DNA from: Bacteroidota bacterium
GTDB taxonomy: Bacteria > Bacteroidota > Ignavibacteria > Tepidaquicellales > Tepidaquicellaceae
NCBI GenBank assembly: GCA_018266835.1
Contig: JAFDZP010000002.1
Span: forward strand, 779,302-843,301
Length of the DNA: 64,000 nucleotides
Direction: 5' to 3'
Made by a program: the position numbers and the translations under genes. Shown here in pieces: positions 3,697 to 63,904 of this stretch (its first letter is position 1; each line of letters begins with the position of its first letter). Below the pieces are notes generated by a model. That model ran no database searches. It saw only the letters and a program-made list of their open reading frames with translations, and was not told the origin of the DNA.

Positions 3697-5913
3697 ATGT
3701 TATCCACTTTATATAAGAAAAAATTAGATGAACTGCTTGCTGTCTGTCATAAAAATATACCTGCAAATAAGGTAAATGACAAACTGATAACTCACGCATT
3801 TCAGTTTTCACTTGATGCGCACAAAAATGATAAACGTGCATCGGGCGAACCTTTTTTTTCTCATCCATATGAAGTGGCTACTATCATTGCACGGGAAATA
3901 GCATTAGATGATGTCTCAGTTGCCGCAGCATTGTTGCACGATGTTGTTGAAGATACAAAATTTAATTTAAAAGATATTAAACTTGAGTTCGGTGATAAGA
4001 TTGCTGAAATAGTTGACGGCGCAACGAAGATAGACGGTATTTTTGAAAACTACGAGCTAAAACAGGTAGAATCATATCGTAAAATGCTTCTCTCCATGAC
4101 ATCAGATATTCGTGTGATGCTCATAAAATTTGCCGACAGACTTCATAATCTTCGTACTCTTGAATTTCTTTCCAATCCACGTCAGATGCGAATGGCACAA
4201 GAGACGCTGGAAATATTCGCTCCGTTCGCTCACAGATTCGGACTCGCAAACGTAAAAGCAGAACTTGAAGATCTCTCATTCAAATATTTAGACAGACCTG
4301 CTTACGATGAACTTGCAAAAAAACTAAACGAAAAGAAAAGAGAACGTGATAAACTCATAAATAGATTTATAGATCCAATAAGGCAAAAACTTGCTACTGA
4401 AGGTTATAAATTTGAAATTTATGGAAGAGCAAAACACCTATATAGTATTTACAAAAAGATAAAAGCACGTAACAAAAGTTTTGATGAGCTTTATGATTTA
4501 TTCGCAGTAAGAATTGTACTTGATACACAGGATAAAAATGACTGTTTCTCTGCTTATGGAATTTGCTCAAGTATTTACATACCCAACCCCGATAGATTTA
4601 AGGACTATATTTCTCTCCCAAAGCAAAACGGTTATCAATCCATCCATACAACTTTGGTGAGCAAAGAAGGTAAGATGGTTGAAGTTCAAATAAGAACCAA
4701 AGATATGCACGAAGTTGCAGAAAAAGGTGTTGCTGCTCACTGGAAGTATAAAGAGAATACAAATATAAACGATGAGAATCTTGAGAACTGGATGAAATCT
4801 GTTAGAGAGTCTCTTGAAAATGCAACTAAAGATGAGTCATCTTCCGCCATCATGGATAGCTTTAAGCTTAATCTTTATCAGGATGAAATTTATTGCTTTA
4901 CCCCTAAGGGAGAATTGAAAGTCTTACCTGCAGGAGCAACCGCCGTTGATTTTGCTTTCGACATTCATACTGAAGTTGGTTACAAGTGTATAGGAGCAAA
5001 AATTAACGGAAAGATAGTTACATTAGATACTAAACTAAGAAGCGGCGATCAGATAGAAATTATCACATCAAAAAGTCAGACTCCCAAAAGAGACTGGGAA
5101 AAATTTGTTGTAACACATAAAGCTAAATCGGATATAAGAAAATATTTCAATACTGAAAAAAGAGTTTTAGCAGGTAGAGGAAAAGAAATTTGGGAAAAGA
5201 AAATCAAAAAACATAAACTTCATTTCAGCGAAGAATTGTTTTTAAAAGTTATTCATAAACTTAAGCATAAAGAAATTTCTCAGTTTTATTATGAAGTTGC
5301 TGCTGATGAAAAGAAAGCTGATGAAGCTATAGAGATATTATCAGATGTAAATAAAATTCAGAACCTTGATAAAAGTCCTCAGCTTAATGAAAAAATTGCA
5401 AAATCTAATGACCCCGTTGCTTCATTCGATAAATTTGTAAACGACGCAAGGTCACAGCAGAGTAAAATTTCTATTGGAGATTCTTCACTTGCTGATTTAC
5501 AATATTCATTTGCAAAATGCTGCCATCCTATTCCCGGAGATGAAGTGATAGGGTTTATTACAAAAACTGAGGGTGTTAAAATTCACAGAAAGAATTGTAA
5601 AAATCTTGTTCATCTTTTTTTACAGGATCCCCACAGAGTTGTTGACATAAACTGGAGTGACAGCGGAACCGGAGATTTTACTGCAGGCATTAAAATTATC
5701 GGCGAAGACAGGGCAGGCATATTAAACGATATTACCAATACAATCTCGAAAAATTATAAAGTTAATATCAAAAGTGTTAACGTAGTTACAAAAGCATCAA
5801 TGTTTGAAGGTAATTTCATTTTGCAAATCACAAATCTAAAACAGTTAAACGATATAATAGAAAAAATAATGCAGCAGGAAGGCGTATTTACTGCTTCCCG
5901 CTTTGACGAATAA
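3697..5913 (+). CDS. spoT: Bifunctional (p)ppGpp synthetase/hydrolase (RelA/SpoT homologue)
   Basis: 738 aa. HD hydrolase motif (HDVVEDT), RelA/SpoT synthetase region, and TGS and C-terminal ACT-like regions in the standard order. Confidence 0.85.
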   Translation: MLSTLYKKKLDELLAVCHKNIPANKVNDKLITHAFQFSLDAHKNDKRASGEPFFSHPYEVATIIAREIALDDVSVAAALLHDVVEDTKFNLKDIKLEFGDKIAEIVDGATKIDGIFENYELKQVESYRKMLLSMTSDIRVMLIKFADRLHNLRTLEFLSNPRQMRMAQETLEIFAPFAHRFGLANVKAELEDLSFKYLDRPAYDELAKKLNEKKRERDKLINRFIDPIRQKLATEGYKFEIYGRAKHLYSIYKKIKARNKSFDELYDLFAVRIVLDTQDKNDCFSAYGICSSIYIPNPDRFKDYISLPKQNGYQSIHTTLVSKEGKMVEVQIRTKDMHEVAEKGVAAHWKYKENTNINDENLENWMKSVRESLENATKDESSSAIMDSFKLNLYQDEIYCFTPKGELKVLPAGATAVDFAFDIHTEVGYKCIGAKINGKIVTLDTKLRSGDQIEIITSKSQTPKRDWEKFVVTHKAKSDIRKYFNTEKRVLAGRGKEIWEKKIKKHKLHFSEELFLKVIHKLKHKEISQFYYEVAADEKKADEAIEILSDVNKIQNLDKSPQLNEKIAKSNDPVASFDKFVNDARSQQSKISIGDSSLADLQYSFAKCCHPIPGDEVIGFITKTEGVKIHRKNCKNLVHLFLQDPHRVVDINWSDSGTGDFTAGIKIIGEDRAGILNDITNTISKNYKVNIKSVNVVTKASMFEGNFILQITNLKQLNDIIEKIMQQEGVFTASRFDE

Positions 5914-12095: not shown

Positions 12096-13160
12096 TTGAT
12101 TTTAGATAAAAATAAAATACAGAAGATACTGGTAATAAAATTCGGCGGAATGGGTGACATCCTTCTTACTACTCCTGTGCTGCCAAATCTAAAAGCATAT
12201 TTCCCTAAGGCTGAGATTTATTTCCTTACCTTGGAGCATTCACGTGACCTTCTGTTTGATAATCCATATATCTCACGTGCGTTCACTTATACTCCCAGTG
12301 AAGACGACTCACTTTTTTTAATCCGCACAATAAGAAAACAAAGATACGATTTAGTAATTGACCTCTACTGCAATCCCAGGACTGCAATGATAACTTTTTG
12401 CAGCGGAGCTAAGTACCGCTTCGGCTTCCGTTTCAGAGGAAGAAAGTATGCATACAATATAATGACTGACGGAAGAGGCGGTGAAGTCCACAATATTGAT
12501 TTCAACTTAGATGCATTACGAAAACTAGAGATACCAATTTTCACAAAGGATATGTTTATCCCTGTAAACATTGTTCACAAAGAATTTGCAGAAGAGTTTA
12601 TAAACAGCAACAACATTAAAGGCAAACCCATCATAGGTATTTCGAAAACCGGCGGCTGGGAATCCAAGAGATATAAAACAGCTGACTACATTATACTATT
12701 AAAAGAACTCAATAAAATTTACGATGCTAACTATTTACTGATATGGGGGACAAAGAAAGAACGTGAGGACTGCGAAGCAATCAACAAAGAATTCCCGGAT
12801 AATACATTTATTATTCCCGACAGTCCTTTAAAATATCTTGCAGCGTTAATTGAGAGATGCGATATAATCATAGGTAACGACTCAGGTCCTTTACATATAG
12901 CATGTGCAATGAAAATTCCCGTGCTGGGAATTTATGGACCTACTAATCCCGCTCTGCAAGGACCTTATGGAGATAAAAATCTTACAATTGTAAATGAAAA
13001 CTTAAATTGTTTATATTGTAGTTTGCTTGATTGTCCGATAGGAAATATTTGCATGACTGAACTTGATAAAGGAAAGATAATTGAAAAGATTAAGATATTG
13101 ATGCAACGACTTCCTAATTCAGAATTCAGAATGCAGAATTCAGAATTGCCTTCAACTTAG
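12096..13160 (+). CDS. Glycosyltransferase family 9 (LPS heptosyltransferase-like); TTG start
   Basis: N-terminal ILVIKFGGMGDILLTTP, typical of GT9. The C-terminal tail is encoded by tandem aattcaga octamers (13115-13160). Confidence 0.7.
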   Translation: MILDKNKIQKILVIKFGGMGDILLTTPVLPNLKAYFPKAEIYFLTLEHSRDLLFDNPYISRAFTYTPSEDDSLFLIRTIRKQRYDLVIDLYCNPRTAMITFCSGAKYRFGFRFRGRKYAYNIMTDGRGGEVHNIDFNLDALRKLEIPIFTKDMFIPVNIVHKEFAEEFINSNNIKGKPIIGISKTGGWESKRYKTADYIILLKELNKIYDANYLLIWGTKKEREDCEAINKEFPDNTFIIPDSPLKYLAALIERCDIIIGNDSGPLHIACAMKIPVLGIYGPTNPALQGPYGDKNLTIVNENLNCLYCSLLDCPIGNICMTELDKGKIIEKIKILMQRLPNSEFRMQNSELPST

Positions 13161-18746: not shown

Positions 18747-19448
18747 TTAATTTCCCCATGCATACCAATTTCCCTGAAGATGTTTCCATACTTTTGCTCC
18801 TCCATAATTTGTATGCTCTTCTCCATTTGGGGAGTATGTTATTCCGCTGCAATGGTTTAGCCATCCATTTATTGTAAAACATACTGAACCGTCTTTAAAT
18901 GTTTCTAAGTCAATACAATCAACGGCTGATAATTTTTTTATAAAATCTTCATGGGTGTCTTCATCTATATTTAACTCTTTAATTAAGTCCGAATACAGAT
19001 GAATAACATCTTTATCATATTCTGAAATATCTTTGGCGTGGTACATGAAAGGTTTATCATTTAATGAGCCGCCTTTGTTATTCCCCTCACTCATCTGGGT
19101 TATTTTTTCATAGCGATTAATCTCTTGCATAAAATCATTAAATTTTTTCTCCCTGAGCTTAAAAAAAACATAATCAGCAGCGTCTAACTGATATCCGTAA
19201 CTTAGACCGAAAAATAGAACGGTTCCTAAAATCCCGCCAAGTACACCTATTCTGAAATATTTTCTTTTCTCTACAAAACAATAAACTACATATGAAACAA
19301 TTACGACAACCATAACTATTAAATCAACTGCTAATAGAATCGGCCATAATTTAATTCTTATAAAAAAAACTGTTGTCAAAAATGGAATCATCAAATAAAG
19401 CAAAATAAGACCAATGACAAAACTGGAAACCACATTTCTTGATTTCAT
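18747..19448 (-). CDS. Hypothetical membrane protein (3 TM, C-terminal soluble domain). Paralog of the 19627-20154 gene.
   Basis: TM helices, plus shared blocks with the neighbour (E(I)NRYEKI / LNDK, C-terminal NWYAWGN versus NWYYWSF). Confidence 0.5.
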   Translation of the reverse strand: MKSRNVVSSFVIGLILLYLMIPFLTTVFFIRIKLWPILLAVDLIVMVVVIVSYVVYCFVEKRKYFRIGVLGGILGTVLFFGLSYGYQLDAADYVFFKLREKKFNDFMQEINRYEKITQMSEGNNKGGSLNDKPFMYHAKDISEYDKDVIHLYSDLIKELNIDEDTHEDFIKKLSAVDCIDLETFKDGSVCFTINGWLNHCSGITYSPNGEEHTNYGGAKVWKHLQGNWYAWGN

Positions 19449-19587
19449 TTCCTATCCCACTTTAATTGAACATCTTTTAATTTATATTTTTTGAATCTCA
19501 TGTATTAAAATCTAATTTATTGTAAATATCCATTTATTATTCAGACATCCCTATTCCTCTCCTTATAGTGGAAGGGGAAGAATCGTG

Positions 19588-19619
19588 CGGGAGTGTCCGT
19601 AATGACATTCCCTTTTTTT
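19588..19619 (+). terminator. Second copy of the gggagtgtc...gacattccc hairpin with a T7 run. Embedded in a GC-rich block related to the 1533-1660 cluster.
   Basis: cgggagtgtccgtaatgacattcccttttttt. The preceding ctccttatagtggaagggga resembles 1641-1660. Confidence 0.5.
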
Positions 19620-19626
19620 GTTAAGA

Positions 19627-20154
19627 TTAAAAACTCCAATAATACCAATTATCACTTAATTTTGTCCTGTGATAATCTGGTTCGTTATACCATTTTGACG
19701 TATTTCTTTCATCGTATATAACACCGTATCTTCCACTTGAGATGCCAAAGGATATACTTACGTCATCATGCACAAAAAAATCATCTATTTTTATTTTCTC
19801 CATTCTGGTCCGGAATTTTTCAAAAGTGCTTTGCTGAATATCCAAATTTTTTAATAAGTCCTCAATATAATATACTTGTCTACCCTTTCCTGATGTGTCT
19901 GCCTGCTCTTTTTTAAAAGTATAATGTTTATCATTTAACGTATTTCCTGTTTTATTCTTTGTCATTCCATAAATTTTCTTGTAATTTTTTATTTCTGTCA
20001 CAAATTCATTTAATGATTTTTCGTTCTCTCTAAAAAAGCTAAGATAAAAAGGTTCTCTGATTTTAAAATATAAAAATAAAATTATTGCCAGTGATATTGT
20101 AAAAATTACCAGAGTAATATATAATTTATTTCTCTTTTTCATTTCTTCTCCCAC
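19627..20154 (-). CDS. Hypothetical membrane-anchored protein (1 TM). Paralog of the 18747-19448 gene.
   Basis: Shared sequence blocks with the upstream neighbour. Overlaps the GNAT gene by 16 nt. Confidence 0.5.
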   Translation of the reverse strand: MGEEMKKRNKLYITLVIFTISLAIILFLYFKIREPFYLSFFRENEKSLNEFVTEIKNYKKIYGMTKNKTGNTLNDKHYTFKKEQADTSGKGRQVYYIEDLLKNLDIQQSTFEKFRTRMEKIKIDDFFVHDDVSISFGISSGRYGVIYDERNTSKWYNEPDYHRTKLSDNWYYWSF

Positions 20155-20591
20155 TTTAAAGAAATTCCTTCAGCTTCGTATTGCTCTGCGTCAATCATCG
20201 AACCCTTGAAAGTCCGCTCTTCTTTAAATCCCATTTTTTTATAAAGCTCCAATGCGGCAATATTATTTTTTAAAACGGCAATTCTTAAATCACCTTCAGC
20301 TTTTTCCAATACGTATTCTATTAATATCCTTCCTATTCCTTTTCTGTAATGAGCAGGAGACACATAAAGCCAGTCAATTGTTTTTTTGTTGAAGCCGATA
20401 AATCCCGCAACTTCACCTTCAATTTCAGCAACTAAGATTTCTCCTCCAAATAATCCTTCTGCAAAAGCAGCTTTCTCTAATGGAATGAATGCATTTAAAT
20501 CAACAGTTCCGCTCAGCTCATCTAATCGGGCTTCATCATGAATTTTTGAAATTGCCTGCCAGTCGCTCGTTTTATATTTTCGAATTTTCAT
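20139..20591 (-). CDS. GNAT-family N-acetyltransferase
   Basis: 150 aa; acetyl-CoA binding region R.GIGR.L; GNAT fold pattern. Confidence 0.75.
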   Translation of the reverse strand: MKIRKYKTSDWQAISKIHDEARLDELSGTVDLNAFIPLEKAAFAEGLFGGEILVAEIEGEVAGFIGFNKKTIDWLYVSPAHYRKGIGRILIEYVLEKAEGDLRIAVLKNNIAALELYKKMGFKEERTFKGSMIDAEQYEAEGISLKWEKK

Positions 20592-20727
20592 GTAGTATAA
20601 AGTAGTAAGTATAATGTTGAAAGAAAAAGTCGCATTATTGTCACATTTTATTTTTTTTATGTTGTAAAAACAATCTTTTTAAATTTTTATTTTTCAAAAA
20701 TCGGGAAATAATCGGATTTTGTTCTCT

Positions 20728-21120
20728 GACCTGACAGTTCGCCATGGCTAATTAATCCTGTCAGGTCTAGCTATAGTCACATTAATGTAACATTTTTTTG
20801 ATACCGCCCCCTTAATCCCCCTCCTTGTAAAGGAGGGGAAACTTAATTTCAAAAAAGTCGGGAAATAGTCGGATATTATTATTCCTTATTCTCTATTAAT
20901 TATTCATTCGTTAAATTAGTCGGAAAATAGTCGGGTTTTATTTTGTCAAGATTTTAAAAACAATTCAGCATAAATTTTTTCTGATTCTTGATGAATTTTT
21001 GACGGATTTCTGCAAAATAAAAAGCCATCATTGTACTAACTTTACGAATGTCACATTATGTAACATTTTCATTTTGTTTTAAAACCTGGCAGGATTAAAT
21101 CCGCCATGGCGGACTGTCAG
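20728..21120. repeat. MITE-like structured element. Its ends are hairpins that are inverted copies of one another (20728-20767 gacctgacag[ttcgccatggctaattaatc]ctgtcaggtc; 21086-21120 ctggcag[gattaaatccgccatggcgga]ctgtcag). It has internal 18-bp direct repeats, tcacatta(a)tgtaacatttt boxes at 20777 and 21051, and an embedded REP-like hairpin.
   Basis: Read directly. The loop of the right hairpin is the reverse complement of the left loop (gattaattagccatggcgaa versus gattaaatccgccatggcgga). Direct repeats (a/g)tcgg(g)aaata(a/g)tcgg(a/g)t sit at 20700, 20857 and 20919. No ORF is present. Confidence 0.5.
20800..20848. repeat. REP-like GC-rich hairpin element (gataccgcccccttaatccccctccttgtaaaggagggg)
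   Basis: Near-identical to 63550-63588 and related to 1626-1660, 63463-63508 and 63646-63679. Confidence 0.7.
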
Positions 21121-21231
21121 ATTAATTTGCACTCTTAATATACTAAACTCAAAAAAATTTTCAAACAAAGTTTTCCCTATTAGTAGTAATAGGATTTTTT
21201 TATTTTTACATAATAAAATCTCTCAAAACGA

Positions 21232-23007
21232 ATGATGAAAAATATTCTGCTGTTCTTCATATCTCTGACTTTTACTGTTTCCATATACTCCCAGGAAAAA
21301 CCAAATACAAAATACTGGATTTATTTTAAAGATAAGGGCAAATTTACCACGGGAAAAGTAACTCCGGGCAGCGCTGCTTATGAAGCAGGTAAATCTCTTC
21401 TGACCGAAAAAGCAATTAAGAGAAGACTTAAAGTTTTATCTGAAGAAAGCCTGATTGACTTCGGTGACCTTCCCTTAGAAGAAAAATACATAAACGGAAT
21501 AACAAAGTTAAATATAAATCTCGTTGCAAAGTCACGCTGGCTTAACGGAGTTTCTGCATATCTCACTCCTTCACAGGTGAAAAAAATAAAAGAATTAAAT
21601 TTTGTCTCTGAAGTAACTTCGGTAAGAAAACTTAACAAGCAGGAATTTATAAATCCTATTGACCTCTCTTTTAATGAAGATAATTTTTTTCTGCCTCAGG
21701 AAACTCACAAATTAGATTACGGAAAATCACTTAAGCAGTTAGAGCTTGTGAATGTACCTAAGGTACATGATTTAAATATTACGGGCAAAGGTGTCTTCCT
21801 CGCAAATATAGATGACGGATTTGAGTGGAGAAGTCACCAGGCACTGAATACACTTTCTGTATTAGGCGAGCACGACTTTGTGAATGACGACGATAACACT
21901 TTTAAAGAAGAGCGTAACAAATTTAATGAAGGTTTTTCACAGGGAGACCACGGCACTGCAACGCTTTCATGCATGAGCGCAAGAAAAGACGGTAAGCTTT
22001 ATGGACCTTCATTTGATGCAGATATTTTACTCGCTAAGACTGAATTCGTTGCAAGCGAAACTCCTATGGAAGAAGATTTCTGGCTGGAAGCTGCAGAGTG
22101 GGTTGAGTCACAGGGAGTTGATGTAGTAACAAGCTCTCTTAACTATCGCATCTTTGATGCCCCCTACGATTCCAATACATATAAATATACAGATCTTAAC
22201 GGTAACAGAGCTATTTGTACAATCGCTGCAGACAGATGCGCATACCTCGGAATAGTTGTTTGCAATTCAATGGGAAATTATTATCAGACAGATGTTCCTT
22301 CTATTACAACTCCCGCTGATGCTGATTCAATTATTTCTGTTGGTGCGATAAGTCCTAATGGAAAAATTGCAGGCTTCAGTTCTAACGGACCGACAGCCGA
22401 CGGAAGAACAAAACCCGACGTAGTTGCTCCCGGTGTTGATGTATGGGTAGCTGTTTCAAAAAACAGTTCAGGTAATGACAGTACATATAAATTCGGAAAC
22501 GGTACTTCATTCGCTACTCCTATAACTGCAGGTGTTTGCGGACTGATTTTATCAGCGCACCCTGAGTTAACTCCGTTGCAGGTACGGGAAGCATTGAGAA
22601 ATACAGCGAATAATTCTGCCACGCCGAACAATGTTTACGGCTGGGGATTGATAAATGCTTATGATGCTATTTTATACTGGGGACCTGTGTGGAGTAATGA
22701 ACCGGAAGTTGAATATAAAAATGGAGGAATGTATATAAGGACTTATTTAGTTTCAAAAGACGTAATAGACACCAGCAAAGTTATTTTTGCCTATAATTTT
22801 GAAACGAATAACTTCATAGATTATAATATGAAATTGATTGAGAATTTAAATGATGGTAACTATTCAGGCAGATACGAAGTATTTATTAAAGATATTAATA
22901 CGAATGATAATTCCGGTAAATATCAATTTATTACCGAAACAACAAATGACAAAATAATTTGGGATAACAGTAATGGAAATCCTCAAATAAGAAAAATAAA
23001 AAAGTAG
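21232..23007 (+). CDS. Secreted subtilisin-like serine peptidase (S8 family)
   Basis: Signal peptide; Asp (NIDDGFE), His (HGTATLS) and Ser (GTSFATP) catalytic triad motifs in S8 order. Confidence 0.8.
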   Translation: MMKNILLFFISLTFTVSIYSQEKPNTKYWIYFKDKGKFTTGKVTPGSAAYEAGKSLLTEKAIKRRLKVLSEESLIDFGDLPLEEKYINGITKLNINLVAKSRWLNGVSAYLTPSQVKKIKELNFVSEVTSVRKLNKQEFINPIDLSFNEDNFFLPQETHKLDYGKSLKQLELVNVPKVHDLNITGKGVFLANIDDGFEWRSHQALNTLSVLGEHDFVNDDDNTFKEERNKFNEGFSQGDHGTATLSCMSARKDGKLYGPSFDADILLAKTEFVASETPMEEDFWLEAAEWVESQGVDVVTSSLNYRIFDAPYDSNTYKYTDLNGNRAICTIAADRCAYLGIVVCNSMGNYYQTDVPSITTPADADSIISVGAISPNGKIAGFSSNGPTADGRTKPDVVAPGVDVWVAVSKNSSGNDSTYKFGNGTSFATPITAGVCGLILSAHPELTPLQVREALRNTANNSATPNNVYGWGLINAYDAILYWGPVWSNEPEVEYKNGGMYIRTYLVSKDVIDTSKVIFAYNFETNNFIDYNMKLIENLNDGNYSGRYEVFIKDINTNDNSGKYQFITETTNDKIIWDNSNGNPQIRKIKK

Positions 23008-41517: not shown

Positions 41518-43278
41518 TTATTTAATAATTACCATTTTTTTAGAAGATTCAAATCCTTGCGCTGAAGTCATTTTTATAAAATATATTCCGCTTGGTAAAT
41601 TTGATGCATCAAATTTTACTTCATACACTCCCTGAGGTTTTTCTTCGTTTACTAAAGTTCTAAGCAATTCGCCTCTTGTATCATACAACTGAATTTTTAC
41701 TTTCCAAAGCATTTTCACTTCGTATTTTATAGTTGTAACCGGATTAAATGGATTGGGATAGTTCTGGTACAATTTAAAATGTGTCGGTAGTTCAGGAGCA
41801 GGCTCAACGTAGTAGGATTCAAATCCCTCAATTGCCTGATAATAAATTTTTTTAGTAAGGTTAGTAAGCTCTTTTAATTTTGTAACAGAGTTTAAATTAC
41901 TGCTGCCTCTTGCTATTAACTGAGCCATGGCAATTTTTTGTGTATCGCCGGGATTTACATTTAAAAAGTCTGAACCCGTAGAAATCATAAATCTTCTTTC
42001 GCCCGGGTATGAAAGCTGAAATAATCCTGTAGTTGCTCCTCCACAATTGTATACTCTTCCTTTTCTCTCGGTCCAGCCCGTAGAATCCTCTGGATTTCCG
42101 GGATAACAGAATTTAGTAATTTTATAAGGAGTATAGGTTGGGTCCAACCAGGGAGTACCGTCTTTTTTATATCCTCTCATATAATTATAAGCTTGGGATG
42201 GAGCACTGGAAGGGTCAGTTTCACATAATGGACCTCCGGATTCAGTATTTACAAAAAAAGTCATTGAAGTTGCATTTAAAGTATCAAGAGGATAAGTATT
42301 ATTATTTATCGCACTTCTTAAAAGAGTTTGTCCAACTGCCGGAGGATGTAGTCCGTATTGTCCCGGCGCACCTGTACCATCAGTATCATTTCCATTATAA
42401 CAATATCCCAGCTGAAGTAATGAGTCGCATCCAATATACTCATCCTTTGGATATCCTAAGTCCGGGTCAGTAACGATACTGAAATATGTTTTATTCCAAG
42501 AGGCATTATTTTTATTTACAATATCCCATTTGAAAAATTGTACATTACTGACCGGTTCATCATAATAACCCCAGGCAGTGAGATGAACTTCAGCATTTAA
42601 AGGTCTTGTCCCCCCGCTGAATCCTTCAGATGTAGTATGGTTAGAAGCATCAGCATCAGTGAGGCAAATAAATATCGTTTGATCAGCATCAGGTACGCCG
42701 GGTTTATCTATTCCGATATCATAGATTTTATTATTGTTCAGATCGTTAAAGGGAGCGCCGTAATGTACCATGTCTTTCCACGCGGCAACATCAGGATTTG
42801 AATTTTGAGTATCGTAATATTTTACAGAATATAATCTGAAACGACTATCCGTTTTAAATACAGGAATACCGTTAGAATCTCCCACGTATCCGGGAGCATA
42901 CTCACCGTTATAAGATGCATTAGCCAATCGTAATTCTCCGTTTACATAAGATCCAATGCATAAACCGGATGTAAAAACAGCAAATATTCCTGAACCCTTG
43001 GGCCATTCAAATCCCGGATTATTTGTGTATCTCAAATCCTGGTTGAACACACCCGTATTCCATACGCAAGTTGAAATATTATTGGGATTAAAAATAACCT
43101 GCCTTTTTATTACAGCAGAATAAGAGATGCAATTTAACAGCAAGAATGAAAACAATACTGAGAGAATTTTTTTTATCAATTTTTTAAAAATGTTTAAATA
43201 CAGATCCTTTGCCATAAGTTTTAAATTAAAATTTAAATCTCCTGACAGATTAAATTCCTCCTGGGAAAAGGTATTCAT
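41518..43278 (-). CDS. T9SS-sorted secreted protein, paralog 2. Its last ~80 codons are ~90% nt-identical to paralog 1.
   Basis: Same conserved blocks. The CTD peptide is nearly identical to paralog 1. An alternative start is at the internal MAKD. Confidence 0.7.
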   Translation of the reverse strand: MNTFSQEEFNLSGDLNFNLKLMAKDLYLNIFKKLIKKILSVLFSFLLLNCISYSAVIKRQVIFNPNNISTCVWNTGVFNQDLRYTNNPGFEWPKGSGIFAVFTSGLCIGSYVNGELRLANASYNGEYAPGYVGDSNGIPVFKTDSRFRLYSVKYYDTQNSNPDVAAWKDMVHYGAPFNDLNNNKIYDIGIDKPGVPDADQTIFICLTDADASNHTTSEGFSGGTRPLNAEVHLTAWGYYDEPVSNVQFFKWDIVNKNNASWNKTYFSIVTDPDLGYPKDEYIGCDSLLQLGYCYNGNDTDGTGAPGQYGLHPPAVGQTLLRSAINNNTYPLDTLNATSMTFFVNTESGGPLCETDPSSAPSQAYNYMRGYKKDGTPWLDPTYTPYKITKFCYPGNPEDSTGWTERKGRVYNCGGATTGLFQLSYPGERRFMISTGSDFLNVNPGDTQKIAMAQLIARGSSNLNSVTKLKELTNLTKKIYYQAIEGFESYYVEPAPELPTHFKLYQNYPNPFNPVTTIKYEVKMLWKVKIQLYDTRGELLRTLVNEEKPQGVYEVKFDASNLPSGIYFIKMTSAQGFESSKKMVIIK

Positions 43279-43497
43279 CTGTCAGAGAGAATTCGAGATA
43301 AATGATTCAAATCTGCTTTGGCTACTTTAGCCCATGCAGGGGGACTGCTCTTTCTTCTGCGATTGAATCATCCTCATTGTAACTAAAATTTTAACGGAGA
43401 AGAATATCTCTATACTATTGCAATAGGAGCAGCAATTTTAGCAATGCCGGCGAAGGCACGCCTATATAAAATTAAGATATTCTTTCTCCGGTACTCA

Positions 43498-63462: not shown

Positions 63463-63508
63463 AACCACCCCCTACCCCCTCCTTGAAAAGGAGGGGGACT
63501 AGTTTATT
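63463..63508. repeat. REP-like element copy (aaccaccccctaccccctccttgaaaaggagggggact)
   Basis: Hairpin ccccctcctt-gaaa-aggaggggg. Family members are at 1626, 20800, 63550 and 63646. Confidence 0.7.
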
Positions 63509-63549: not shown

Positions 63550-63588
63550 GATACCGCCCCCTCAATCCCCCCTTATAAAAAGGGGGGG
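63550..63588. repeat. REP-like element copy (gataccgccccctcaatccccccttataaaaaggggggg)
   Basis: The 5' half is identical to the 20800 copy. Confidence 0.7.
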
Positions 63589-63645
63589 GAAGCAAAGAGT
63601 GGCCCCGCGTTCATATGGAAGTGGGACATCCCGAAACAAAAATAG

Positions 63646-63679
63646 TTACCCCCCCTGCCCCTCCTTGAAAAGGAGGGGG
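63646..63679. repeat. REP-like element copy (taccccccctgcccctccttgaaaaggaggggg)
   Basis: Same hairpin as the 63463 copy. Confidence 0.7.
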
Positions 63680-63734
63680 ATTGTCCTCATATAAATTTAT
63701 TTCGAATTTACAATTTGTAATTCATATAGGGGGA

Positions 63735-63836
63735 TGTGGCGCCGCGTCCCGCTTCCAGCGGGACCTGCCGTAAGCACGAAATTGAAATTTCAATTTCGTG
63801 CTTACGGCACCCGGACTTTCAGTCCGGGCGGCGCCA
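63735..63836. other. GC-rich 102-nt cloverleaf (four-way junction). An outer 10-bp stem gtggcgccgc/gcggcgccac encloses hairpin gtcccgc-ttcca-gcgggac, a perfect 40-nt palindrome ccgtaagcacgaaattgaaa|tttcaatttcgtgcttacgg, and hairpin cccggac-tttca-gtccggg.
   Basis: All stems are perfect and read directly. GC content contrasts strongly with the AT-rich flanks. It is not a tRNA (no T-loop or anticodon features). Confidence 0.6.
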
Positions 63837-63904
63837 CAATGTTTTCCAGAGCGTTTTTGTTTCTCTATTGTTTTTAATTACGCCTTGTAATAATTTACTT
63901 GCGA

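Follow-up and report, generated by a model that had tools for sequence, protein, structure and literature searches.

Introduction

The closest described counterparts of the repeat array analysed here are the bacterial interspersed mosaic elements (BIMEs) of enterobacteria, which contain repetitive extragenic palindromic (REP) units, and the BOX elements of Streptococcus pneumoniae (boxA-boxB(n)-boxC). BIMEs are strain-variable intergenic mosaics of palindromes, which alternate in orientation, and other short conserved motifs, and REPs lie mostly between convergent or co-directional genes. BOX elements are modular intergenic repeats with variable internal modules and are found near gene starts, with defined end modules and >100 copies per genome. 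The short tandemly repeated repetitive (STRR) sequences of cyanobacteria are tandem intergenic repeats of several classes with a period of 7 bp. The array in question lies in a 640-bp spacer (positions 20592-21231) within 64,000 nucleotides of contig JAFDZP010000002.1 from a Bacteroidota bacterium (hereafter the window), between a GNAT acetyltransferase gene on the - strand and an S8 serine peptidase gene on the + strand, which are divergent.

The array resembles BIMEs and REPs in the properties just named, and it shares with BOX elements the modular intergenic layout, the variable internal modules and the position near gene starts. It differs from BIMEs in that (i) their palindrome is species-specific, whereas the stem found here is shared across phyla; (ii) BIMEs lack 11-bp tandem doublets, which are the dominant module here; and (iii) neither a conserved GTAG/CTAC nor a gene for a REP-associated tyrosine transposase (RAYT) was identified here. 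Unlike BOX elements, it has no fixed left end and occurs as one array in 64 kb. As in STRR sequences, short tandem repeats of several classes are present, and heptamers occur in these genomes too; but the period is 11 bp rather than 7, and each site holds just 2-5 copies, each coupled to a run of T residues (T-run) and a palindrome.

Our analysis suggests that positions 20592-21135 hold an array specific to this lineage, a mosaic of short interspersed repeat modules in a dispensable spacer, comparable to BIMEs or BOX elements. We put the probability of this reading at roughly 0.55. The array would be neither a single transposable element nor a conserved operator, and its modules possibly descend from recombination-site modules. 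A previous sequence-only reading had instead proposed a ~390-bp miniature inverted-repeat transposable element (MITE) bounded by two inverted hairpins, or a complex operator controlling the protease. The features on which it relied are all present at or near the positions it gave, including the two hairpins and the lack of an open reading frame (ORF): none of at least 40 aa occurs in 20592-21231.

Comparison of orthologous spacers

Orthologous loci of a dozen relatives were found by exact-protein lookup (comparison loci are designated by L numbers). The GNAT(-)/S8(+) order is kept in the relatives, their proteases being 67-78% identical, and the spacer measures 80 bp in L050, 121 bp in L210, 122 bp in L047, 303 bp in L205, 473 bp in L004, 574 bp in L003, 640 bp in the window, 794 bp in L048 and 1503 bp in L001. 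The three shortest (L047, L050 and L210) are empty sites, in which the whole 20592-21135 array is absent and not just segment 20728-21122; their boundaries do not match the ends of the proposed mobile unit. In every array-bearing relative, the doublets differ in number, order and class.

A single part of the spacer, the 95 bp immediately before the start codon of the protease gene (21136-21231, + strand), aligns in all orthologues, empty ones included; it is a promoter-proximal block (AATATACTAAAC...TTTTCCCTATTAGTAGTAATAGG plus a T-run) defined by alignment of the orthologous spacers. Because only this block aligns in all relatives, including the empty sites, the array is dispensable and subject to fast turnover. 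We infer that the conserved block is the protease's own control region.

Four relatives (L001, L003, L004 and L205) carry the same doublet classes, all on the + strand, without any CTGACAG hairpin, and the interior of the proposed unit is homologous to the same spacer in these hairpin-free loci. L048 contains three short-loop hairpins (GACCTGACAGG-ATTAAAAA/TTTTTAAT-CCTGTCAGGTC) upstream of a shared C-type landmark (GATGAATTTTTGA..TTTCTGCAAAATAA), which in the window lies between the two hairpins. Since the interior is homologous without hairpins, the hairpin positions are shifted in L048 and no target-site duplication (TSD) is found, the hairpins are best seen as independent insertions into an older array.

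Three independent assemblies of one further relative (L207, L208 and L209) all end at positions 1-30, within a C-type doublet and 216 bp upstream of the S8 gene. Arrays of this kind break short-read assemblies.

Organization and growth of the array

The direct repeats of the spacer are doublets of an 11-bp unit (TRF period 11, or 10 for the doublet at 21050). They had been recognized as repeats before, but with the wrong unit and count: the spacer holds seven doublets rather than five, all on the + strand, and two of them (20629 and 20700) lie outside the proposed 390-bp unit. Three follow an A-type pattern (GT[AC][AG]CA-TTAWT; 20629, 20776 and 21050) and three a B-type pattern (RTCGGR-AAATA; 20700, 20857 and 20919), while the C-type doublet at 20990 (GATGAATTTTTGACGGA) had been overlooked. 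Elsewhere in the window, we find four chance-level matches against 5.3 expected.

From left to right, the array starts with an A-type doublet of 11-bp period (GTCGCATTATT-GTCACA, 20629-20645), which is followed by the palindrome TTGTAAAAACAA (20662-20673; palindromes carry no strand), and a B-type doublet (ATCGGGAAATA-ATCGGA, 20700-20716). The left hairpin begins 11 nt past the latter. Then come an A-type doublet (GTCACATTAAT-GTAACA, 20776-20792), a G-rich hairpin (CCCCTCC-TTGTAAA-GGAGGGG, 20818-20838), two B-type doublets (GTCGGGAAATA-GTCGGA, 20857-20873; and GTCGGAAAATA-GTCGGG, 20919-20935, with identical 17-mers in L025) and a degenerate copy of the TTGTAAAAACAA module (TTTTAAAAACAAT, 20952-20964). 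The C-type doublet (GATGAATTTTT-GACGGA, 20990-21006, followed by TTTCTGCAAAATAA) is homologous to doublets in L048 (3791 and 2311), L139 (315) and L207 (11), and an A-type doublet of 10-bp period (GTCACATTAT-GTAACA, 21050-21065) precedes the right hairpin. All seven doublets are on the + strand. The G-rich hairpin is the embedded REP-like hairpin of the sequence-only reading and is one of five copies in the window. The unit at 20918-20964 is 72% identical to that at 20628-20674, and the TTGTAAAAACAA module also follows doublets in L001, L003, L004, L025, L048, L151 and L205.

The same anatomy is found in 55 units from ten loci: a doublet (2-5 copies of the 11-mer) is followed by a T-run and, after 10-20 nt, by a palindrome. 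The basic unit measures ~60-80 bp; its 11-bp motif belongs to the series GTCGGAAAATA / GTAACATTATT / GACGGATTTTT and always lies on the protease strand, and the palindrome is usual, not constant. The palindrome slot may be occupied by TTGTAAAAACAA, a CTGACAG hairpin, a G-rich hairpin or a ATTCCCGCGAAAGCGGGAAT-type hairpin. The half-sites form mutational series (GTAACA-GTCACA-GTCGCA-GTCGGA-GTCGGG; and GACGGA-GATGAA), and mixed doublets are present.

Traces of duplication are found at several loci. A 72-bp unit is repeated 2.2 times in L004 and an 11-mer 5.3 times in L157; L001 has 111-nt direct repeats, 93% identical, on either side of a small gene, and in L048 paralogous array segments stand at both sides of a gene. 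The same modules are found at unrelated Ignavibacteria loci, i.e. between a gene for a cargo protein of the type IX secretion system (T9SS) and hisS in L025, between rplU and a T9SS protein gene in L105, and in L139, L151 and L157; at other loci of further Ignavibacteria, too, doublets and these hairpins are found together. The comparison documents growth, contraction and loss of arrays among close relatives, with segmental and tandem duplications in the relatives, as well as the dispersal of modules to other loci and the autonomy of the hairpins.

These findings can be combined into a simple scheme. The palindrome slot behind a doublet is filled by various stand-alone hairpin elements, and in the window two slots hold opposite copies of one nested hairpin (outer GACCTGACAGG/CCTGTCAGGTC, inner TCGCCATGGCGA); these two oppositely oriented copies created the look of terminal inverted repeats. 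Arrays would change through duplication or unequal recombination and through slippage of the 11-mers. The hairpins would be REP-like elements that, if active at all, probably act as symmetric DNA or RNA stem-loops (e.g. at transcript ends or as insulators), and the array would have no sequence-specific part in protease control.

Several observations weigh against a mosaic that accumulated in a dispensable spacer. The arrays always close with a AATATACT..CCTATTAGTAG block (window, L003, L004, L048, L105 and L025), and all doublets at all loci point in the same direction, towards the downstream gene. Plain junk accumulation does not explain this uniform direction and fixed end block, which hint at a directional function or directional growth. 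The fixed order of doublet, T-run and palindrome looks like a designed binding module rather than a random mix. Also, no transposase, RAYT-type or other mobilizing gene was identified.

Nested hairpins in the window and in other genomes

The left hairpin (20728-20767) is nested, with an outer stem GACCTGACAG/CTGTCAGGTC and an inner palindrome, (T)CGCCATGGC(T)A, in its loop. The stem is 10 bp long (20728-20737 and 20758-20767), as had been claimed, and encloses a 20-nt loop containing GCCATGGC; its RNA fold has an energy of -15.9 kcal/mol (z = -3.0). The right hairpin (21084-21122) is an inverted copy of the left, and its outer stem CCTGGCAG/CTGTCAG (21085-21092 and 21114-21120) is shorter than had been thought, with just 7-9 bp and one G.T pair. 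It contains an inner 5-bp hairpin (TCCGCCATGGCGGA, 21100-21113) and folds with -15.7 kcal/mol (z = -2.7). The left hairpin and the reverse complement of the right are identical at 32 of 37 positions with one 1-nt gap, and as a single strand the two can pair with each other.

There are exactly two occurrences of the 18-nt core CTGACAGTNCGCCATGGC in the 64 kb (0.04 expected), and the window contains 2-4 hairpins with a CTGACAG stem compared to 0.05 in shuffled sequences. A third such hairpin (CCTGACAGATTAAAT...ATCTGTCAG, 43241-43286) extends across the start codon of a - strand gene (41518..43278) and may be a diverged member of the family. The inner palindrome TCGCCATGGCGA is found alone in L151 and within a different outer stem in L025. 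We class the two hairpins of the array as nested palindromic elements of a REP-like kind.

We scanned GTDB species genomes for the long-loop form of the hairpin, and viral and metagenome contigs for its stem (with any loop in the viral scan and with a loop starting ATT in the metagenome scan). The GTDB scan returned 41 matches, which overall is the chance level; two of these represent true copies from other Ignavibacteria, both at unrelated loci: one in L010, alone past a gene end, and one in L025, within another array. The family stem (A)GACCTGACAGG/CCTGTCAGGTC(T) was found in 18 viral contigs (22 distinct copies, GC 35-69%) and, in gut, marine, soil and brine metagenomes, at 82 loci with 71 distinct copies (GC 33-65%). 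In all, about 90 unrelated contigs carry it in intergenic DNA.

Positions that the search did not fix are nevertheless conserved. In the metagenome set, 49/71 copies have AGA before CCTG, 61/71 a T after GGTC and 64/71 a C before CTGTCAGG; among the viral copies, 20/22 have A at -1, and the stem is extended by GTTT and AAAC in 14 and 16 of 22, respectively. Two control stems with compensatory changes yielded fewer viral contigs (just 2 and 5, compared with 18 for the real stem) and had no common extension; the family therefore appears specific to this sequence and is not simply any stable hairpin.

Copies are intergenic at nearly all loci and often lie 10-30 nt from both adjoining genes. Of those that could be classified, 11 stand between convergent, 12 between co-directional and 4 between divergent genes; their strand shows no bias relative to the flanking genes (6 vs 6). 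The hairpin is solitary at most loci, and most metagenome contigs hold one. Phage copies are located in structural modules, e.g. after a major head gene. In one viral contig (L065, GC 65%), three tandem 51-bp repeats, each with a hairpin (GACCTGACAGGTTTCGCAAACCTGTCAGGTC), lie at 12949-13081 between a portal/head-morphogenesis gene and a neck gene, and a fourth copy is found at 4837.

When the 538 ORFs that flank ~100 hairpins at distances of up to 1.5 kb were compared all against all by BLAST, no neighbouring protein common to these loci emerged. A GTAG after the palindrome is found in two L048 copies only, and the look-out for RAYT genes covered ORFs up to 1.5 kb from the hairpins. Rfam gave no match at gathering score for the spacer (E <= 10), the whole window, 16 viral loci or one viral hairpin; its sole hit in the hairpin-bearing viral loci is a tRNA in L053, away from the hairpin, the remainder being chance-level miRNA-type matches. 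A full-text literature search with the stem sequences returned nothing but unrelated primers, and blastn of the 37-nt hairpin against a phage collection gave no match, the query being too short for blastn.

Taken with the doublets, these data lead us to a tentative pair of linked readings, which we regard as possible rather than probable when held jointly: the hairpin AGACCTGACAGG(TTT)-loop-(AAA)CCTGTCAGGTCT would be an undescribed intergenic element, and the doublets would be integrase arm-type sites. This element, nearly invariant in bacteria and phages with GC contents of 33%-69%, may be a mini-palindrome that spreads horizontally or a hairpin recognized by some widely conserved factor. The Ignavibacteria arrays, in turn, may be stacked recombination-site modules, i.e. 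landing pads or relics that move small genes in and out of the islet next to the protease gene.

Doublets and tyrosine-integrase sites

Phage lambda Int binds arm-type sites of the consensus (C/A)AGTCACTAT, which starts with AGTC and occurs as the tandem P'1-P'3 sites. The doublets resemble the arm-type sites of lambda P/P' in being tandem repeats ~11 bp apart that begin with AGTC. The spacer could accordingly be read as a landing pad or a set of recombination-site relics, in which doublets are arm-type sites and palindromes are core-like sites, accumulated serially in the E2-S8 islet as in the accretion of cis-mobilizable elements (CIMEs). We regard this reading as the chief competitor of the mosaic array, though as rather doubtful.

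Viral contigs provide the evidence in its favour. The pattern AGTCGGRAAAWAGTCGGR is present in 22 of them, nearly always as the single variant AGTCGGGAAAAAGTCGGG; in at least 12/22 viral loci, this variant is found close to a tyrosine-integrase gene or at its stop codon. In L083 (3478-3709, GC ~25%), two AGTCGGGAAAAAGTCGGG doublets 214 bp apart directly follow a tyrosine-integrase gene and enclose a tRNA 3' end in reverse complement (tggtgacccgtacgggaatcgaaccc), which is the classic attP layout. Likewise, two AGTCGGGAAAAAGTCGGG doublets 206 bp apart follow a tyrosine-integrase gene in L081 (2365-2588, GC ~25%) and bracket a presumed attP. These phage doublets are near-identical to those of the arrays. 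In L199, an exact copy of AGTCGCAAAATAGTCGCA, the D-type doublet of L048 and L105, directly adjoins the gene of an integrase that has an Arm-DNA-binding domain (PF14657); B- and D-type doublets adjoin PF00589 integrases in phage contigs, and the phage doublets also have a hairpin within the next 10-25 nt. The bracketing of genes by directly repeated array segments in L001 and L048 is similar to CIME accretion, the E2-S8 interval is a variable islet with 0-4 small genes across relatives, and attachment sites would account for the uniform orientation of the doublets.

Against this, no integrase homologue was detected by tblastn (E <= 0.01) in the window or the array-bearing Ignavibacteria loci, none appears in the gene lists of the orthologous loci, and an intact element is present in 0 of ~12 of these. 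Nor do the units share a core or an overlap sequence with the empty-site boundary. The integrase beside the D-type doublet in L199 is of Firmicutes type; A-type phage doublets do not stand beside integrases, some B- and D-type ones are near terminase genes, and the C-type pattern has no viral match. Finally, 7-12 units of several motif classes are many for relics, and far more than one att site would comprise.

Operator, transposon and inversion readings

The complex operator of the sequence-only reading can be made more specific: the doublets would be tandem half-sites, 11 bp apart, for OmpR/PhoB-type response regulators of the protease or the GNAT gene. Canonical sites of the OmpR/PhoB family consist of 6-7-bp direct repeats at a period of 11 bp, which the TRF period of 11 (10 at 21050) matches. 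All doublets are directed at the protease, and in L105 an array also precedes the gene of a T9SS-secreted protein. However, the array is absent in L047, L050 and L210 despite the same gene pair and the same proximal block, while in every other relative the number, order and class of doublets vary. Arrays also lie upstream of hisS (L025) and, in the case of the second array of L048, between convergent genes, a position that offers no promoter for it to control. Moreover, no other doublet exists in the remaining ~63 kb of the window. Because of the empty sites and the L048 array between convergent genes, we disfavour an operator and consider it unlikely.

A transposon is less likely still. According to this explanation, 20728-21122 would be one non-autonomous element, a MITE or a REPIN-like doublet of REPs, with hairpin ends recognized by a transposase acting in trans. 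Like MITEs, the segment is non-coding, of sub-kilobase length and bounded by inverted repeats; its ends are 32/37 identical and able to pair as a single strand, and L048 also has two oppositely oriented hairpin copies, 115 bp apart. Unlike in MITEs, no TSD flanks 20728/21122: no direct repeat is common to the left flank, ttgttctct|GACCTG..., and the right one, ...CTGTCAGat|taatttgc (|aatttgcac when read on from 21122), so that the target-site duplications looked for at 20728/21120 are absent. The interior corresponds to the hairpin-free array of the relatives, equivalent modules (including the same doublet classes) also lie outside the ends, and the supposed ends are autonomous hairpins that are displaced in L048 and solitary elsewhere. 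A second copy of the 392-bp unit is found neither in the window nor in ~200 fetched loci, in which only the hairpin or the doublets recur, separately. The claim of mobility therefore has to be divided: the hairpins behave as copies of a dispersed, insertion-prone palindrome, but the 390-bp unit does not behave as a mobile one.

An inverton, in which two inverted 37-nt sites would be the targets of a recombinase that flips a 316-bp segment upstream of the protease, is similarly improbable: the inverted pair does lie just upstream of a secreted-protein gene, and the L048 sites are lox/FRT-like (11-8-11, with an 8-bp asymmetric spacer, ATTAAAAA / TTTTTAAT, in opposite orientation), but the 19-20-nt 'spacers' of the window copies are filled by another palindrome and unfit for a normal crossover site, tblastn found no tyrosine recombinase (serine invertases were not searched), L048 and L049, two assemblies of the L048 lineage, have the same orientation, doublets inside and outside the segment share one orientation, and the hairpin is mostly solitary elsewhere.

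Flanking genes and other repeats of the window

The left boundary of the spacer is the GNAT acetyltransferase gene (20139..20591, - strand; Pfam PF13508/PF00583) and the right boundary is the S8 serine peptidase gene (21232..23007, + strand; PF00082). The window belongs to an Ignavibacteria-like metagenome-assembled genome (MAG) with a GC content of ~35%. The S8 protease matches an NCBI 'Bacteroidetes bacterium' MAG protein at 100% identity, and the next relatives are Ignavibacteria proteins with 55-78% identity. A Por_Secre_tail domain, as a link to the T9SS, was not detected in the C-terminus of the protease.

Two paralogous small membrane-anchored proteins of 233 and 175 aa, both ending in ..NWY[AY]W, are encoded on the - strand to the left (18747-19448 and 19627-20154) and have no Pfam match. 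Members of this family are present in 0-2 copies in the E2-S8 islet of relatives, and in L001 and L048 repeat arrays stand on both sides of one copy of the gene.

The motif (T)CCCTATTAGTAG(T/G)(A/T)ATAGG is found near gene starts at unrelated loci and closes every array (window 21177-21194; L025 5987-6004, - strand; L105 7010-7023; L157 571-583 and 1188-1205). It may be a lineage-specific promoter or binding motif. A sigma-70 promoter scan of 20400-21400 gave chance-level results, and no intrinsic terminators were found there. The sequence CCTATTA-GTAG-TAATAGG plus T-run was considered as a terminator and rejected; it is treated as a sequence motif only, because the pairing is not kept in L047, L050 and L048. 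An oriC or iteron origin was likewise rejected: DnaA boxes, a turn in GC skew and a rep gene are all absent.

The window holds further repeats. The G-rich hairpin family (CCCCTCC-N7-GGAGGGG, usually with ACCNCCCC(T)AA in front) is an abundant intergenic repeat, with copies at 1638-1658, 19556-19576, 20818-20838, 63476-63496 and 63658-63678 of the window (also 63556-63590) and in L025, L048, L105 and L151. A perfect three-way nested palindrome of ~110 nt (63729-63838), in which an outer stem TGTGGCGCCGC/GCGGCGCCACA surrounds three hairpins, has an RNA fold of -87.5 kcal/mol (z = -10.2) and belongs to no Rfam family. The nesting of palindromes is a habit of this genome, as this example illustrates. 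Further hairpin types (cattcccaacgaggacgttgggaatg and ggattcccgccttcgcgggaatgac) occur at 1533-1613 and 19577-19610, the first also in L048 at ~3843. The heptamer (ATTCATA)n is tandemly repeated at 1673-1705, and the spacers of relatives contain (AATTACG)n, (CAGATTT)n and (TGAGTAT)n.

Implications

For annotation, these results mean that inverted hairpins around a few hundred bases need not indicate a transposon; here, comparison of the same site among relatives settled the matter. In this lineage, repeat turnover has a hot spot in the spacer before the gene of a conserved secreted protease, where lengths range from 80 bp to 1.5 kb among relatives, and this could alter the expression of the flanking genes.

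A near-invariant stem of 12-15 bp recurs in hairpins of very different bacteria and phages, and no family that we found explains it. If this stem family is real, it would point to an unknown mobile mini-element or to a conserved hairpin-binding activity. The likeness of the doublets to integrase arm sites, in turn, offers a testable origin for mosaic intergenic repeats.

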